This document shows, piece by piece, positions 4,268 to 11,338 of a DNA stretch of 18,183 nucleotides. Origin of the DNA: Polaribacter sp. (lineage in GTDB: Bacteria; Pseudomonadota; Gammaproteobacteria; Pseudomonadales; Cellvibrionaceae); contig CAXQRU010000078.1 in NCBI GenBank assembly GCA_964226685.1, positions 1 to 18,183 of the forward strand, given 5' to 3'. The number at the start of each line of letters is the position of its first letter. Within the stretch, counting starts at the first letter, position 1. The notes beneath the pieces were generated by a model. That model saw nothing but the letters and a program-made list of their open reading frames with translations, did no database searches and was not told where the DNA came from. The translations under genes and the position numbers were made by a program.

Positions 4268-7200
4268 ATGTCGTCTCAGGATAAATCACAAGCACAAGAC
4301 GATAACGCAATTGTTAATGAAGCGGTTGCTCAAGGTGGCGCATACGAGGTCATTCGCCAACGCCTAGTTGACCAAGCTCAGCAGCTACATAAACACACTC
4401 AAAGCTTAAACGAGGCGCGCATTAGCGAGTTCGGCTCGCCAGACATGAGTGTTTTGGCTCGAGTGCGCGTGCGCACGGAAAATAATTGTGTCGCTAGAGA
4501 TATTGTAGAAGTGGGTCAGCACTTACTGTTTGGTTACAATGTTTTTATAGGGCTCAAGCGCGAGACTAAAGTCGATGATGTTTTTTCTCTTTACACAATT
4601 ACCCAAAACGATGATCAGTACGAACTAACCCCCGTTACCGCCAGCAACACATTTTTAACGGATCCAAGATTTGTCAGCGATTTCGATGAACTCTATCGTT
4701 ACTACAAACACACCAAACTCATCCAGTTATCAGTTCGCCATGGCAAATTGTTAGCGGGTTTTCAAATTGGTGAGAAACTCGAAGATGTTCGGGTATTTCG
4801 TTGGTCAGTATCTGCTGACGGCAAAGATATTAGCTATATTGATAATCGGGGTGAGCGTGACCTTGCCCTACCCCCACCCTACGATTTTGAGTGGGTTAAT
4901 ACGACTCGCGAAGATATTGTGCACAGCCGTCATCCGCATATCAATATTGAAGACACCTTGTTTATCAGTAATAACAAGGGCTTTTTGAATATAAAAATCG
5001 AAGACAATACCGAAGAAGGCATGTCAGTTTTTAGAGAAAAAGTTGAAGATGATACTCAGTCTCTTGATGACCTCTCTGTCAGCTATGCCATAACTGGCAA
5101 GTTAATTTTATTGAAAATATTACCGTATCGAGAGCAAATCTCTCGATACTTTGTTTACAACACGTTGACTCAAACCATTCAACGCATTGATGCCATTGGT
5201 CAATCTTGTGTGCAGCTTCCTGAAGATCACGGCATTATTTTCCCGGGCGGCTATTATTTAGAAAGTGGCGAACACAAAACCTTTGATGAGCAATATACAG
5301 GTTTAATGTTTAAACGCAGTTTTCGATCGCCTAACGGAGAGGATGTATTGTACATTTTCTATGAACCCGTAGAAGGTGTTGTCGGCTTGTTTGCCTACAA
5401 TATGATTAATAAAACCTTAAAAAATCCCATTTATGGTCATGGTTACGCACAGTTTGATAATGGTTTAATCATTATTTTTTCATCGGAAGGCGAGCCAACT
5501 CGCGTTCACCCCATGCAATTATGGCAAACACCTTTTTTTAGCGCCGAGTACGCCAGCGCCCTACCCGATAGCCAAACACCACTTGGTAAAATTGGCAACG
5601 CTGAACTCGTTCGCGGGATTTCGGATTTATTTAGCATTTGTCGAATTGTCGACAATCAATCGGTCTCCATGCGTTTATATGAAGAGCTAACTAGAATTAC
5701 TCAAAAAATATTTGATGACTACTACTGGCTGACTCAAGATAACTTCAATGATATCAAAGATTCGGTCAATCTAATTACTGCAACGGCTGAACTGGTCATT
5801 GATGAGTTCGAAAAAGTTGAGAGCATTCGACAGCAATCGGCCAAGACTTTACAAAAAGCGCAAGAAGAGCAAGAAAAAATTATTAGCCAAGCAAGGCCCG
5901 ATAATTGGGAAAGCGCCGAACAATATGTTAATGCGTTAAGAAAGATTCGCCAGCAACGGGGTCACTTATCGACAATTTCTGATTATCGATACATCGACAA
6001 GAAAAAAATTAGTGATTTAGATCAAGAACTGGTAAAAATTGAAGAGAAATTAAGTGAAAAAACCGTTACCTTCTTGGTGGGAGAAGAGGCTTTAACGCCG
6101 TATTTCACAAAAGTAGAACAATTAGATCACGGCGTAGAAACAGCCAACACGATTGCAGAATTGACACCCATCATTGAAGCCATTGAAGGTACCACGGCAG
6201 GACTCGATGTACTTTCTGAGTTGATGGGCACGCTACAAATAGATGATGCCACCGTGCGCACACGCATCATTGACTCGATTTCTGAAGTCTATGCCAAACT
6301 CAACCAAAGCAAAGCTCAGGCGAATCATCGTAGAAAATCTCTGGGCTCACAAGAAGCGGTTGCTCAATTTAGTGCTCAATTTAAATTGTTTTCTCAAAGC
6401 ATTACAAACGCTCTTGGCTTGGCAACCACACCAGACAAATGTGATGAACAATTATCACGCTTACTTGCTCGGTTAGAAGAGTTAGAAAGCCAATTCAGTG
6501 ACTTTGAAGATTACCTGGCCGATATTATTACCAAAAGGGAAGAAGTGTATCAGGCCTTCGAGGCCCATAAACAACAATTACTCGATGAAAGGCAACGAAA
6601 ATCGCAAGCGGTGATGGAGGCGACCAATCGCATTTTATCGAGCATTGAAAAACGCTCACTAAAATTCACCGACCCCGATGAACTCAATACTTATTTTGCG
6701 TCCGATAGCTTGGTCGCCAAAGTGCGAGAATTTGTTGAGCGCTTAAGAGATTTGAACAGTGCGGTTCAAGCCGATGATGTCGAGGCTCGTTTTAAATCCA
6801 TTAAAGAGCAATCCATTCGCGCCCTTCGAGACAAGACTGATATTTATGAAGAGGGAGGCAATGTGATTAAACTTGGGCCTCGCCATAAATTCAGCGTGAA
6901 TACCCAAGAGCTTGATCTCACCCTTTTCCCGAAGGAGGGGGTCATGAATGTGCATTTGACGGGCACCGATTTCTATGAACCCATTAAAAATGAAGATTTG
7001 GACTCTTTAAAAGCCTATTGGGGTTTGGCGGTCGAATCGGAAACCCCTCAGCTCTATCGAGCTGAATATCTTGCTGGCTCCATTATCCGTGCTGCTCAAA
7101 ACCAAACCGATGGTTTAACGATAGAAATACTCAATACCGCTTTGCTAGATGATAACCATTTAAGCAAGTTAGTTCGAGATTTTGCCACGCCGCGCTATAA

Positions 7201-9700
7201 AGAAGGCTACGAAAAAGGCATTCACGATCACGATGCCACCTTGCTATTGAAAAAATTATTACCGGCTATTGCCAGTGCTGACCTACTCACGTTTGACCCG
7301 ACCAGCCGAGCCTTGGCTCAAGTGTTCTGGGCGAGCATAGAGCAAAGAAATATTTCAGGTATTGCTCACCGAGCTTGGATTGAACAAGCTCAATCAGCCG
7401 TGCAGTTAAATGAAATTTTTGCCAGCCACAAAGCATTGGATTTATTGATTGATGATGTAGAAACGGCGTTAAAGCTGTTTTTAGAGAGACACCCCTTAGC
7501 ACTCGACACCTACCATCAACGCCGAGCGGCGCACTATTTAGTGTTAGAACTTGGGCGCGATAGACTGGACTTTATCACTAGCAAATACGCGGAAAATTTA
7601 GCGGGAGAACTCAAACGTTCGTTAACGGATGAGCAGTGGCGACAGTATCAAAAATCATTAGATAATTTAAGCGGCCAGCCCAACCGGCGTTGGCAATTAA
7701 CCAACACTTGGCTCAATGCCTTAATTGAGAACAAACAACTCGGTCGCCTAGCTCACTACTTATCTGAGGCCATAGCCTTTTTAATTATTCGCGAACCCTT
7801 GAGTCGCCGCTCAGTTGAAGTCGATTTAGAAATTGATGTTCAGGGTTTACTGGGTAATCATAGTCGAATTGTGGATCGAGGCTTACTGCTATCTGTTGAT
7901 AATTTCTTGCAGCGTTTCGAGCAACATTGCACGGAGGTAATCCCCTCTTATCATCGCTATTTAGCATTGCGCCAACAAATCGCCGAGCGCGAACGCAAAC
8001 AGTTAAGGCTAGACTCCTTTAAGCCTAAGCCCTTAAGTTCATTTGTTCGCAACCGGCTCATTAATGAAGCGTATCTACCGATTATCGGGGATAACCTTGC
8101 CAAACAAATGGGCACTGTGGGTGAGAGCAAACGAACCGATTTGATGGGATTATTAATGATGATCTCGCCTCCTGGTTACGGTAAAACCACATTGATGGAA
8201 TACGTTGCCAGCCGCTTGGGTTTGATTTTCATGAAAATCAACTGCCCCTCCTTGGGTCACGATGTAACCTCGCTAGATCCTGCACAAGCGCCAAATGCAA
8301 CCGCCAAACAAGAGTTGAATAAAATCAATCTGTCCTTTGAGATGGGTAATAACGTTATGCTTTATCTGGATGATATTCAGCACACTCATCCAGAATTTTT
8401 GCAAAAATTTATTTCATTGTGTGATGGTACGCGGCGAATTGATGGTGTTTGGAACGGCGAGACCAAAACCTATGATATGCGCGGGCGTAAATTTTGTGTG
8501 GTGATGGCAGGCAACCCCTATACCGAGTCGGGCGAGGTTTTCAAAATTCCTGATATGCTTGCCAACCGCGCTGACATTTATAATCTGGGTGATATCTTAG
8601 GCGGCATGGATGAACAATTTGCCTTGAGTTATATTGAAAACGCACTCACTTCCAACCCTGTGCTCGCACCACTTGCACTGAGAGAATTGAGCGATGTCTA
8701 TAAACTGGTTCGCATGAGCCAGGGTGAGAATGTCCCTAGCACGGATTTAAGCTACAGTTATTCGGGTGCTGAGATTAACGAGATTACACAAGTCTTGAAA
8801 AAATTATTTGTGATCCAAGATGTCGTGCTCAAAATTAATCAGCAATATATTGCCTCAGCCGCGCAAGATGATAAGTATCGGACCGAACCGGCCTTTAAGT
8901 TACAGGGTAGTTATCGAAACATGAATAAAATGGCTGAAAAAGTTTCGGCCGTTATGAACGATGAAGAACTGATGGCGATGATTGCCGATCACTATTTGGG
9001 CGAGGCACAACTATTAACAACCGGCGCCGAGGCGAATTTATTAAAGCTTTCTGAACTTAGAGGCAATATGACACAGGAGCAGCACGCTCGCTGGCAAGCC
9101 ATTAAAGCCGACTTCCTGCGCAATAAAGCCATGGGCGGCGATGAAACCGATACTGGCAACAAAATGGTTGTGCAGCTTAATGATATCGTCAATAGCTTAA
9201 AACAGTTGGGTGTGGCAACGCAAAGTAGCGGGCAATCATTGACGAGCGTGGTGGAGTCGATCAATCATCAAAATAGCGAATCGCAACAGGCGGCTATTGA
9301 CCAATTAAGCAATATTGTAAAAGGTTTGCAGCAGCTAGGAAAAATCACCAATAGTAACGGCAAATCCCTAGCCGCACTGGTTGAAAACCTAGAAAAAGAA
9401 GAGCCTTTATTGCTGGATGAAGCGACTCAACCGCAGTCTGAAAGTTCACAAATGGTTGAAGCACTGGTTCAGGCTTTGGAAAAAATTGAAACCGTTGGCG
9501 AGGGTGCGCCCAATGAGATTGCACATTCTCTAGCGCAATTGACCCAGGAAATCGATCAAATCGCCAAGCCCTTGATCAAGAAGATGGATAAAAAATTATC
9601 GGTTGATTTGAGAACTTACTTTAGAGTCACTGAATTATCCAAAAAAATTATTGAAATGAATCAAAAATCGCCGGCAAAAAAGGCAACCAAAGGAGAGTAG
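4268..9700 (+). CDS. Giant multidomain protein (1810 aa) with a beta-rich N-terminal region, a long helical middle, a C-terminal AAA+ ATPase core (AAA_5/MoxR-like) and C-terminal tandem repeats. Family not recognised.
   Basis: The 5433-nt ORF has no stops and a ribosome-binding site GGGAGA. Walker A is MMISPPGYGKTTLMEY (nt ~8159-8197). Walker B is VMLYLDDIQ (nt ~8357-8380). Sensor-1-like VVMAGNP and an Arg-containing LANRADIY follow. The C-terminus has about three degenerate ~43-aa repeats (…IVNSLKQLGVATQSSGQSLTSVVESI / …IVKGLQQLGKITNSNGKSLAALVENL…). Confidence 0.8.
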   Translation: MSSQDKSQAQDDNAIVNEAVAQGGAYEVIRQRLVDQAQQLHKHTQSLNEARISEFGSPDMSVLARVRVRTENNCVARDIVEVGQHLLFGYNVFIGLKRETKVDDVFSLYTITQNDDQYELTPVTASNTFLTDPRFVSDFDELYRYYKHTKLIQLSVRHGKLLAGFQIGEKLEDVRVFRWSVSADGKDISYIDNRGERDLALPPPYDFEWVNTTREDIVHSRHPHINIEDTLFISNNKGFLNIKIEDNTEEGMSVFREKVEDDTQSLDDLSVSYAITGKLILLKILPYREQISRYFVYNTLTQTIQRIDAIGQSCVQLPEDHGIIFPGGYYLESGEHKTFDEQYTGLMFKRSFRSPNGEDVLYIFYEPVEGVVGLFAYNMINKTLKNPIYGHGYAQFDNGLIIIFSSEGEPTRVHPMQLWQTPFFSAEYASALPDSQTPLGKIGNAELVRGISDLFSICRIVDNQSVSMRLYEELTRITQKIFDDYYWLTQDNFNDIKDSVNLITATAELVIDEFEKVESIRQQSAKTLQKAQEEQEKIISQARPDNWESAEQYVNALRKIRQQRGHLSTISDYRYIDKKKISDLDQELVKIEEKLSEKTVTFLVGEEALTPYFTKVEQLDHGVETANTIAELTPIIEAIEGTTAGLDVLSELMGTLQIDDATVRTRIIDSISEVYAKLNQSKAQANHRRKSLGSQEAVAQFSAQFKLFSQSITNALGLATTPDKCDEQLSRLLARLEELESQFSDFEDYLADIITKREEVYQAFEAHKQQLLDERQRKSQAVMEATNRILSSIEKRSLKFTDPDELNTYFASDSLVAKVREFVERLRDLNSAVQADDVEARFKSIKEQSIRALRDKTDIYEEGGNVIKLGPRHKFSVNTQELDLTLFPKEGVMNVHLTGTDFYEPIKNEDLDSLKAYWGLAVESETPQLYRAEYLAGSIIRAAQNQTDGLTIEILNTALLDDNHLSKLVRDFATPRYKEGYEKGIHDHDATLLLKKLLPAIASADLLTFDPTSRALAQVFWASIEQRNISGIAHRAWIEQAQSAVQLNEIFASHKALDLLIDDVETALKLFLERHPLALDTYHQRRAAHYLVLELGRDRLDFITSKYAENLAGELKRSLTDEQWRQYQKSLDNLSGQPNRRWQLTNTWLNALIENKQLGRLAHYLSEAIAFLIIREPLSRRSVEVDLEIDVQGLLGNHSRIVDRGLLLSVDNFLQRFEQHCTEVIPSYHRYLALRQQIAERERKQLRLDSFKPKPLSSFVRNRLINEAYLPIIGDNLAKQMGTVGESKRTDLMGLLMMISPPGYGKTTLMEYVASRLGLIFMKINCPSLGHDVTSLDPAQAPNATAKQELNKINLSFEMGNNVMLYLDDIQHTHPEFLQKFISLCDGTRRIDGVWNGETKTYDMRGRKFCVVMAGNPYTESGEVFKIPDMLANRADIYNLGDILGGMDEQFALSYIENALTSNPVLAPLALRELSDVYKLVRMSQGENVPSTDLSYSYSGAEINEITQVLKKLFVIQDVVLKINQQYIASAAQDDKYRTEPAFKLQGSYRNMNKMAEKVSAVMNDEELMAMIADHYLGEAQLLTTGAEANLLKLSELRGNMTQEQHARWQAIKADFLRNKAMGGDETDTGNKMVVQLNDIVNSLKQLGVATQSSGQSLTSVVESINHQNSESQQAAIDQLSNIVKGLQQLGKITNSNGKSLAALVENLEKEEPLLLDEATQPQSESSQMVEALVQALEKIETVGEGAPNEIAHSLAQLTQEIDQIAKPLIKKMDKKLSVDLRTYFRVTELSKKIIEMNQKSPAKKATKGE

Positions 9701-9714
9701 TATGAGTTATTTAG

Positions 9715-9985
9715 TTAAGGAACCTCTGATCAAGTCTAGCGTGCCTCTGGCCTAGCAGGTTTGTTCGAGATCTAGGCGCTTCTTTGCAGCAATGTCTAGA
9801 CCTTGCAAAAAGGAGCAACAACGATATCGGACAAACCTGCAGGCCCCGAAGGGCGTGGCCAAAACGTCCATATGCTGCGTTGAACTTCTTGCAAAGGACT
9901 AAGGCCATTAGACTGCGAAGTCCGCCTTGCCTATGAACGTTTTGACTCACGCAGAGCCGGCTAGACTTGATCAGAGGTTCCTTAA
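9715..9985. mobile_element. 271-bp element bounded by perfect 26-bp terminal inverted repeats (TTAAGGAACCTCTGATCAAGTCTAGC at 9715-9740, and its reverse complement at 9960-9985). MITE-like or a structured non-coding RNA.
   Basis: Direct reading. The two repeats match 26/26. The interior has nested complementary segments, for example GCAGGTTTGTTCGA (about 9755-9768) paired with TCGGACAAACCTGC (about 9827-9840). It has no ORF. It lies 14 nt after the stop of the giant gene. Confidence 0.55.
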
Positions 9986-10194
9986 GTTATAAATCCATTC
10001 AATGTTTTGCTAACGATGGCCGTTTGCTAGTTGATGAACTGGATGAATTATTATCCATCGCCTTGCGCGACGGCGTCGTTGATGAAGACGAACAGCGCGT
10101 GCTGAACAATATCATCGATCGATTAAATCCTGATGAACTCACCACAGACATGCTGGATAAAATTGCCGAGGTAAAAAAAGCCATTAATGCCTAA
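9967..10194 (+). CDS. Small acidic ORF with a TerB-like motif (…DGRLLVDELDELLSIALRDGVVDEDEQRVLNNIIDRL…). No ATG start; it begins inside the right inverted repeat. Either a 3' gene remnant or a small protein with a non-canonical start.
   Basis: The only in-frame start candidates are TTG and GTG codons, and there is no clear ribosome-binding site. The D/E-rich helical repeat resembles TerB/DjlA-N-type domains from memory. The stem-loop with the 12-bp stem follows. Confidence 0.3.
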   Translation: MIRGSLSYKSIQCFANDGRLLVDELDELLSIALRDGVVDEDEQRVLNNIIDRLNPDELTTDMLDKIAEVKKAINA

Positions 10195-10201
10195 TCGACC
10201 A

Positions 10202-10232
10202 AATAAGGCTACCCATTTTCGGTAGCCTTATT
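10202..10232. terminator. Bidirectional intrinsic terminator between convergent genes: a perfect 12-bp stem AATAAGGCTACC/GGTAGCCTTATT with loop CATTTTC
   Basis: Direct reading. The stem contains A/T-rich ends that supply U-tracts on both strands. It lies between the 3' ends of 9967-10194 (+) and dprA (-). Confidence 0.7.
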
Positions 10233-10246
10233 CATCTTAATTCACG

Positions 10247-11338
10247 TTAAACTCGCTCAAAACCCCAACGACTGTAACGGATCAAGCCTTTTAATTCCAA
10301 CATCATTAAGCCCGAAGCCAGCTCACTGGAATCTAAGCAAGTCATATCGGTTAATAGCTCCAAAGATACGGTATCAAATCCCATAGCATCGTAAATGGTT
10401 TGCTCGTTCGGCGCTAAACCTTCGCTGGATCGTGCCTCGTGAGCAAAGGCCTTAATGGGACTCAATACATCCTCCAAATGCTCGGCAATATCCTCTGGCG
10501 ACTCGGCCAAAATGGCGCCCTGGCGAATTAATTCGTGTGGCCCTTTAGACTGTGGATTTTGGATGGAACCTGGCAAGGCAAACACTAAGCGATTTTGCTC
10601 ATTGGCCAAACGCGCGGTAATTAGTGAGCCGCTTTTAATGGCAGCCTCCACGACAATGGTGGCACAACTTAAGCCGCTAATGATGCGATTACGCTCAGGG
10701 AAGTGGCCGGCACGGGGCGGCGTGGTCGGTAAAAACTCGCTCACCAACGCACCCCCATGTTCTAAAATTTCCTCAGCCAAACGCTCGTGACGCTTGGGGT
10801 ACACTGAGTCCACGCCCGTTGCCATCACCGCAATGGTGGGCTTGCGCTGATCCACCACGGCCTGATGGGCGGCACCATCAATACCGATCGCCAAACCACT
10901 GGTGACCACAAAACCGCTCAGAGCCAATGATTGCGCAAAATAGCGCGCGTTGCGCGCGCCGCCGGCACTGGGGTGGCGCGATCCCACAATGGCCAACTGC
11001 GGCAAGGTTAATGGGCTAACATCGCCGCGCACAAATAACACCAAGGGCGGTCGCACGGTTTGTGCCAACAAGGGCGGGTAATGTTCACTGCCGTAAGCGA
11101 CCAGTGTGGCTCCAAAGCGTTCTAACTTTTCCATCACCGCCTGAGCTTGGCGATGCAATGGGCTGGCAGCCCCTGCCGCTTGATAATTGCCTAAGGCTTG
11201 TTTGGCTTTGTCATTGATGGTGAGGGCCTGTGGGTCAGCGTTTAAGATCGCTTCAGGGGTTTGAAAGTGCTCAAGCAGTTGCCAAGCGGTATTGCGGCCA
11301 ACGCCGGGGAGTAATTGCAATAATAAATAGGGGGACAT
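10247..11338 (-). CDS. dprA: DNA processing protein A (DprA/Smf)
   Basis: 363 aa. It has the DprA Rossmann-like core (…LAIVGSRHPSAGGARNARYFAQSLALSGFVVTSGLAIGIDGAAHQAVV… TIAVMATGVDSVYPKRH… ALPGSIQNPQSKGPHELIRQGA…). The ribosome-binding site is AAGGA. Its GC content is visibly higher than that of the flanking genes. Confidence 0.9.
   Translation of the reverse strand: MSPYLLLQLLPGVGRNTAWQLLEHFQTPEAILNADPQALTINDKAKQALGNYQAAGAASPLHRQAQAVMEKLERFGATLVAYGSEHYPPLLAQTVRPPLVLFVRGDVSPLTLPQLAIVGSRHPSAGGARNARYFAQSLALSGFVVTSGLAIGIDGAAHQAVVDQRKPTIAVMATGVDSVYPKRHERLAEEILEHGGALVSEFLPTTPPRAGHFPERNRIISGLSCATIVVEAAIKSGSLITARLANEQNRLVFALPGSIQNPQSKGPHELIRQGAILAESPEDIAEHLEDVLSPIKAFAHEARSSEGLAPNEQTIYDAMGFDTVSLELLTDMTCLDSSELASGLMMLELKGLIRYSRWGFERV

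Follow-up and report, generated by a model that had tools for sequence, protein, structure and literature searches.

Correia elements (CREE) of Neisseria are about 100-150 bp long, have terminal inverted repeats of about 26 bp and occupy TA-containing targets; they are often co-transcribed with neighbouring genes, and cleavage of their long hairpin RNA by RNase III alters mRNA stability. Chunjie, a foldback non-coding MITE of Geobacter uraniireducens, is said to have inserted recently in an operon whose structure is reportedly intact. IS5 duplicates its 4-bp target, YTAR (PMC5009759), and the MITEs already described for the IS5 family include BrickBuilt, MITE293 and MITE700 of Porphyromonas gingivalis and the ATR element of Neisseria, which is linked to ISNme1 (PMC4596501).

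The present work concerns a 271-bp unit at positions 9715-9985 of a stretch of 18,183 nucleotides, the whole of which was analysed and is called the window below. This unit is very probably an IS5-group MITE inserted on a TTAA target in a small conserved gene, a reading to which we give a probability of roughly 0.88. Correia elements differ from it in their ends, in their TA duplication and in being confined to one genus, and, unlike the insertion of Chunjie, the insertion in the window severs a gene from its start. Like the insertion sequences (ISs) of the IS5 group, the element has ends that begin GGAA and a 4-bp YTAR duplication. Autonomous elements that share its ends measure about 1.2 kb and encode one IS5-family transposase (NF033581), whereas the window element is 263 bp long, has no transposase and shares with them only the sequence of its 22-bp ends. 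It resembles BrickBuilt, MITE293, MITE700 and ATR in being non-coding, in having IS5-family ends and an interior unrelated to the transposase gene, and in its long predicted stem-loops (PMC4596501). BrickBuilt is nevertheless unrelated in sequence, has irregular or missing duplications and contains an internal minisatellite (PMC4596501), whereas the family to which the window element belongs has regular YTAR duplications, one or two polar modules of about 100 nt and a distribution over several phyla. The window element is thus a further member of a class that is already known; it is the breadth of its family and the covarying hairpin module in its interior that go beyond the ordinary.

Ends and extent of the element

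The sequence at 9960-9985 is the exact reverse complement of that at 9715-9740 (TTAAGGAACCTCTGATCAAGTCTAGC), as the first-pass annotation of this DNA had recognized. This 26-mer occurs at only these two sites in the window even if up to 3 mismatches are allowed, and none of 200 dinucleotide-preserving shuffles produced a 26-mer match. Each 26-nt arm consists of a 4-bp target-site duplication, TTAA, and a perfect 22-bp terminal inverted repeat (22 of 22 bp); because TTAA is its own reverse complement, the outer TTAA reads as part of the repeat, and the true repeat is therefore 22 bp long. The left duplication (9715-9718), which is identified by the flank statistics of the family and by the single TTAA in empty sites, is followed by the left repeat GGAACCTCTGATCAAGTCTAGC (9719-9740), which has GATC inside it and contains a 20-mer common to the family and to the ends of IS5-family ISs. 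The right repeat (9960-9981), an exact reverse complement of the left one, holds a TTG at 9967 and is followed by the right duplication (9982-9985), in which TTA is a Leu codon of the native small gene. The first-pass annotation saw no unambiguous target-site duplication; the 4-bp TTAA duplication is present, and the element proper extends over 9719-9981 (263 bp), with a GC content of 51% as against 46% for the window.

The element has the small size of a MITE and carries no transposase gene; there is also no transposase in the 18-kb window, and hence no autonomous partner there. The interior had been described as having no ORF, but an ORF of 79 aa on the minus strand (9711-9950) overlaps the element. 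A search of 5.8 billion proteins gave no homolog of this ORF, for which reason it is treated as spurious, and its use as a protein probe for further copies of the element gave no matches. A BLASTN comparison of the whole element with plasmids gave no match, and the IS ends described below surfaced only with a short query at E<=10. The nearest relatives found are 74% identical, and no near-identical second copy was found.

The perfection of both the terminal repeats and the duplication makes a recent mobilisation, which the first-pass annotation had suggested, plausible; against it stand the 74% identity of the nearest relatives, which leaves activity and recency in this host putative, and the 8 nt by which the 5' stump of the interrupted gene departs from the homologs. 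A GATC lies within TGATCA in each terminal repeat; the positions noted in the window are 9728, 9769 and 9969. IS10, IS50 and IS903 have ends that are sensitive to Dam methylation, and the ends of the present element could likewise be methylation-sensitive if the host has a Dam methylase.

The interior hairpin module

The terminal helix closes an interior of 219 bp, in which two hairpins of about 100 nt flank a tiny central one. Hairpin A (9746-9846, minus strand) and hairpin B (9852-9955, plus strand) both match a covariance model, R1, with scores of 32.9 bits (E 4e-5) and 87.3 bits (E 2e-19), respectively; the former is further supported by its fold and the latter by covariation. The central mini-hairpin GCCC-CGAA-GGGC (9843-9854) stands at the junction of the two and is part of the most conserved core, CCCCGAAGGGCGYGGCCAAAACGTCCAT. 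The nested complementarity reported for the interior is borne out on both strands, since the predicted RNA folds have energies of -132 kcal/mol (plus strand) and -136 kcal/mol (minus strand) with z about -11, and a fold with DNA parameters has -72 kcal/mol (z -9.6).

Homologs of the interior were found in a 362-bp element of Gilvimarinus (L031), where the core is conserved, and in four metagenome elements (L124-L127), where it is exact; the three core-sharing metagenome elements that were aligned are 63-74% identical overall. More distant homologs form a class of 273-287 bp in Beta- and Gammaproteobacteria. The covariance model, which was built on hairpin B and has 104 positions and 24 pairs, finds 50 copies of the module in the DNA searched (49 in the first search). 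Elements with two hairpins have one copy on each strand, and their interior is therefore an inverted dimer of a single polar module, while the classes of about 160 and about 186 bp contain one module; single or dimeric, the module is found between IS5-type ends in several proteobacterial classes. It is absent from the autonomous ISs L046, L055 and L128-L130, which were searched for it because its presence would have indicated that the small elements arose by internal deletion. In two of the metagenome elements (L125 2438-2718 and L126 11507-11787) the module lies between a different terminal repeat (GGCACCTCTATTAAT...), and an IS5-family element on a Methylomonas plasmid has an intermediate end, GGAACCTCTGATTAATTC (L130 1805-1825). 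These different and intermediate ends suggest that modules move between related end types.

In the alignment of 49 module sequences, standard pairs make up 87.1% of the cells at paired columns, compared with 55.0% in shuffled alignments and 31-45% with slid partners; there are 350 double-sided changes where 103 are expected, and the covariation score of 0.74, compared with 0.21, is reached by none of 500 shuffles. The pairing in this alignment is inflated because the alignment was fitted to the structure of the model, but compensatory changes in 18 of the 24 pairs also emerge when the 10 seed sequences are analysed independently with MAFFT/RNAalifold. The module is more than a plain palindrome, because its unpaired motifs (GCGTTG, CTTGGCA/CGCCTTGC and AATGGCCATT) are conserved and asymmetric. 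CCTTG is repeated directly, rather than in inverted orientation, on the two arms, which leaves conserved internal loops that could be a protein-binding site.

Covariation of this strength, together with the asymmetric conserved internal-loop motifs, a fold that is very stable on either strand and a location inside a transcription unit upstream of its terminator, would fit a dedicated structured non-coding RNA gene or a cis-regulatory RNA, closed by a 26-bp helix, whose terminal repeats serve RNA folding rather than transposition; the first-pass annotation had raised a structured non-coding RNA of this kind as an alternative. The composition of the paired columns does not favour it. When one conserved U.G column is set aside (columns 36/95 of alignment A3, nearly invariant and present in 35 of the 49 sequences), G.U and U.G together occupy 44 cells and A.C and C.A together 56. 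In an RNA structure formed by one transcript, wobbles are normally tolerated far better than A.C. The parity observed here fits a constraint acting on both strands better than it fits a one-strand RNA gene, and it is expected with DNA hairpins or cruciforms, with arm-to-arm template-switch correction or with an RNA that functions in either orientation. Since the modules of a dimer lie on opposite strands, no transcript presents both in the same sense.

The RNA reading also has no match in Rfam, even at E<=10: in the scan of Rfam 15, the best overlaps scored 15.8-20.5 bits against cutoffs of 47-60, and all belonged to models of eukaryotic miRNAs and snoRNAs. A promoter scan found no sigma-70-like site near the element; by eye, a TTGATC in the right repeat can be joined with a TATAAA in the flank, at a spacing of just 15 nt. 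Finally, the same ends flank IS5 transposase genes elsewhere, with 4-bp duplications at dispersed sites, and the element interrupts a gene rather than occupying a conserved regulatory position. A dedicated RNA is on these grounds very improbable, and the rejection of a retron in the first-pass annotation is likewise reasonable. Lying between the giant gene and the operon terminator, the element should be transcribed passively in the operon mRNA, where it would also fold.

The stems of the module are accordingly read, from the pattern of substitutions, as a putative constraint on the DNA of a MITE. It is a more speculative idea, and one that we consider unlikely though worth stating, that the module is functional cargo under selection, a previously undescribed and widely distributed structured element carried on IS5 ends. 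Such cargo could act as single-stranded DNA or as a cruciform with protein-binding loops (CCTTG, GCGTTG and AATGGCCATT) that aids mobilisation in trans, or as an RNA that works in either orientation.

The family sharing the terminal repeat

The terminal 20-mer AAGGAACCTCTGATCAAGTC was used as an exact probe on one genome per species, in a pattern that fixed AA at positions 3-4 of the left flank. It ends at least 119 elements in Proteobacteria, Acidobacteriota, Chloroflexota and Bacteroidota; the hosts among the matches listed are Methylococcales, Thiotrichales, Gallionella, Thiobacillus, Nitrosomonas, Burkholderiales, Marinobacter, Cellvibrionaceae, Novosphingobium, Acidobacteriota, Chloroflexota and a Chitinophaga MAG. 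In several MAGs among these matches, 3-6 contigs of the same MAG bear the 20-mer, and in the close subfamily there are two contigs per metagenome. The terminal-repeat sequence had 0 matches in a search of full-text papers.

Among the matches listed, 81 elements have an imperfect inverted copy of the end at a distance of 52-1572 bp; the sizes are mostly 52-372 bp, with modes at 156-162, 186 and 273-287 bp. The minimal members, of 52-81 bp, consist of two terminal repeats around a short loop (L093 4617-4672, L048, L052, L095, L004 and L009). In L071 (about 889-1173) two members abut head to tail (…GATTCCTTAAGGAAAC…) and resemble one element of 281 bp; this pair exemplifies insertions that are clustered or nested and share a TTAA.

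Copies of about 1.2 kb account for two of the 81 end-paired elements among the matches listed, L046 and L055. L046 (1206 bp, flanks CTAA/CTAA) encodes a protein of 327 aa that scores 330 bits on the NCBIfam model NF033581, IS5 family transposase (cutoff 140), and that has further matches in Pfam, to DDE_Tnp_1 and DUF772; the other copy, L055, is frameshifted. Transposases of the L046 type are 58% identical to a common IS5-type protein of enterobacterial plasmids, 70% to the copies in Granulicella and 49% to the copy on the Achromobacter plasmid pA81. On pA81 and on the Methylomonas plasmid pUP202, sequences that match the end at 20-21 of 22 positions border annotated IS5-family transposase genes on the left, and the pA81 element, TTAA|GGAACCTCTGAACAAGTCC...|TTAA, is an annotated IS5-family IS of about 1.2 kb. 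The ends of L046, L055 and the pA81 IS are thus the same or nearly the same as those of the window element, and these partners sit in other genomes. The MITE-like nature suggested in the first-pass annotation can therefore be made specific: the ends are those of IS5-family elements, the duplication is TTAA, and the element is a non-autonomous derivative of the IS5 group.

The flanks of the family members show how many bases are duplicated. The 4-mers on the left and right are identical in 51 of the 81 elements among the matches listed (TTAA in 33 and CTAA in 16), while permutation gives an expected mean of 25 (sd 3.3) and none of 10000 permutations reaches 51. The first base of the flank is C on both sides in 23 of these elements and T on both sides in 44, and the two sides are C/T-discordant in 8. 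Because the first base agrees between the flanks, four bases are duplicated and the target is of the YTAR type, the R being observed on the right flank only, since positions 3-4 of the left flank were fixed as AA.

Flanks of the form Y-TA-R would also fit the NTAN/CTAG preference of IS630, so the element could in principle be a MITE of the IS630/Tc1-mariner type which duplicates only TA and extends over 9718-9982. This reading is highly improbable, since the agreement of the base outside the TA means that four bases rather than two are duplicated, and since the autonomous elements with these ends encode transposases of the IS5 family and not of the IS630 family. That the unit is a purely local palindrome, an artefact of replication or repair which was never mobile, is scarcely credible in spite of its single copy in the window and the lack of an identical copy among the sequences found elsewhere, because dispersed elements in many genomes have ends and interiors homologous to its own and because it is flanked by a duplicated TTAA at a point where the homologs show no interruption.

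The insertion site and the interrupted gene

The MITE lies within a PspA/DUF2170/DUF3686-AAA+ operon, downstream of a giant gene (4268-9700, plus strand, stop TAG at 9698-9700) whose 1810-aa product contains DUF3686 (Pfam, 5e-194), DUF7902 and AAA domains. The first-pass annotation placed the element 14 nt after the last stop codon of the operon. The distance is correct for the stop codon of the giant gene, but this stop is not the last of the operon, because the 14 nt hold the ATG and four codons of the next gene. This 5' stump (9692-9714, plus strand) has a Shine-Dalgarno sequence, GGAGAG, an ATG at 9702, one base past the TAG of the giant gene, and the codons for MSYL; its frame, cut after 13 nt, runs on into the element and stops at 9755, so that it now encodes MSYLVKEPLIKSSVPLA.

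The rest of the small gene (…SYKSIQCFANDG…) lies at 9986-10194 on the plus strand and is the last in the operon. When intact, the gene encodes about 76 aa, and its six homologs (P0002-P0007) are 76-79 aa long and 62-74% identical. They start MSNDYLELSYKSIQCF, with the N-terminal consensus MS(N/S)DYLEL(S/T)Y(K/Q)SIQCF, and the corresponding DNA is ATGAGTAATGA(T/C)TATTTAGA(A/G)TTAA. The uninterrupted sites read ...TAT TTA GA(A/G) TTA A(C/G)... and thus have one TTAA where the window has TTAA-element-TTAA; the empty sites available for this comparison are all distant, the nearest relative in the protein database being 61% identical over the C-terminus of the giant gene. Read against these homologs, the element interrupts the small conserved gene at about codon 8.

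The small gene is found directly after the DUF3686/AAA+ gene in L120, L121 and L132. Its acidic product of about 76 aa (MSNDYLELSYKSIQCFANDGKL...ALRDGVVDEDEKRVL...) is always encoded directly after the giant gene, often overlapping it or a few nt from its stop (window 9702-9714 + 9986-10194; L120 6001-6234; L121 6001-6231; L132 1547-1777). The protein matches no Pfam family, and shows only a sub-threshold similarity to TerB-like sequences (E ~0.01). Homologous operons continue with a gene of about 380 aa and a zinc-ribbon gene of 184 aa (L120 6271-8053; L121 6251-7956). These two genes are absent from the window (10195-11338), where the operon ends instead in a terminator-like hairpin with a T-run (10202-10232, plus strand), followed by a convergent dprA (10247-11338, minus strand).

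The remaining ORF has been called from the TTG at 9967, within the right repeat, as a protein of 75 aa (P0001, MIRGSLSYKS...). No Shine-Dalgarno sequence belongs to this TTG, and when 9690-10040 is folded it is paired in the 26-bp helix. Because the native Shine-Dalgarno sequence, ATG and first codons have been separated from the rest of the gene, and because the TTG is buried and lacks a ribosome-binding site, the small gene is most probably silenced in this population. Two other assemblies contain the same insertion, with an identity of 99.96-100%. One of them, an independent assembly of this population, provides a Logan contig (SRR28144556, L123) whose position 1 corresponds to window position 9927, the break lying inside hairpin B; such a break is a typical effect of a repeat or a strong hairpin on short-read assembly, and it hints at further copies in the source genome.

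The stump is shorter than its counterpart in the homologs. It lacks the 6 nt AATGA(T/C), or the Asn-Asp codons, which are present in all four uninterrupted homologs compared, and 2 nt (AA/AG) directly before the TTAA, a total deficit of 8 nt. The predicted empty site, …TATTTAGTTAAGTTATAAA… / TATTTAGTTAAGTTATAAATCC, is consequently 2 nt out of frame relative to the homologs, the in-frame ancestral form of the site being TATTTAGA(A/G)TTAAGTTATAAA; because of this deficit, excision of the element together with one TTAA leaves the gene out of frame. The deficit reflects either secondary deletions and decay after the insertion or N-terminal variation in this lineage.

It is barely conceivable that the unit is an intron-like element excised from the mRNA, since, although deletion of all 271 nt (9715-9985) joins the ATG at 9702 in frame to the rest of the gene and gives a 73-aa product, MSYLGYKSIQCF..., one in three deletions is in frame by chance, the joined MSYLGYKS is unlike the homologs (MSNDYLELSYKS), in which the TTAA target itself makes up the Leu-Ser codons, no group I or group II intron or ribozyme matched in Rfam, and the 8-nt deficit of the stump makes the in-frame deletion a coincidence rather than evidence of splicing.

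In the nearest relative (L131, about 1277-1510, the 61% identical one) the small gene has two in-frame TAA codons (…LLVE*LDQLL…, …AQEI*EKITK…) and was not called; this copy may be a pseudogene or may contain sequencing errors. As it carries two in-frame stops, the small gene may be dispensable.

Proposed mechanism

The ends, the TTAA duplication and the kinship with the family are observed; from them we infer that an IS5-group MITE transposed. Having no transposase of its own, the element would have been mobilised in trans by an IS5-type DDE transposase from an autonomous element with the same ends, for which the perfect 22-bp repeats GGAACCTCTGATCAAGTCTAGC are the predicted sites of binding and cleavage. 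Staggered cleavage of 4 bp at the TTAA target, followed by repair, would have left the flanking TTAA duplication. The module may assist this process as a hairpin or cruciform that joins the two ends, or its stems may be maintained by arm-to-arm template-switch correction.

The element would have entered TTA AGT, which codes for Leu-Ser around codon 8, in a small gene that is presumably coupled translationally to the giant gene, and the insertion would have parted the Shine-Dalgarno sequence, the ATG and the first codons from the rest of it. The TTG at 9967 would then be the sole start left, probably buried in the perfect 26-bp helix of the operon transcript. This helix may also serve as an RNase III site or as a 3' stabiliser for the upstream message; processing by RNase III of the kind known for Correia elements is plausible at this locus.

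Significance

The consequences of the insertion for function are those that the sequence alone would predict, and they change the annotation of the locus, because the 75-aa protein called from TTG 9967 would be the product of a MITE-truncated gene. For the family as a whole, one transposon end of 20 nt is identical in small elements from MAGs of Proteobacteria, Acidobacteriota, Chloroflexota and Bacteroidota, and these small elements far outnumber their autonomous partners, with 2 transposase-encoding copies in the 81 end-paired elements among the matches listed. Many of the small elements contain a hairpin module whose covariation is unusually clear. The family is a recurrent cause of contig breaks and of miscalled small ORFs in metagenome assemblies, and it offers a convenient system for asking what non-autonomous elements need, besides their terminal repeats, in order to spread.
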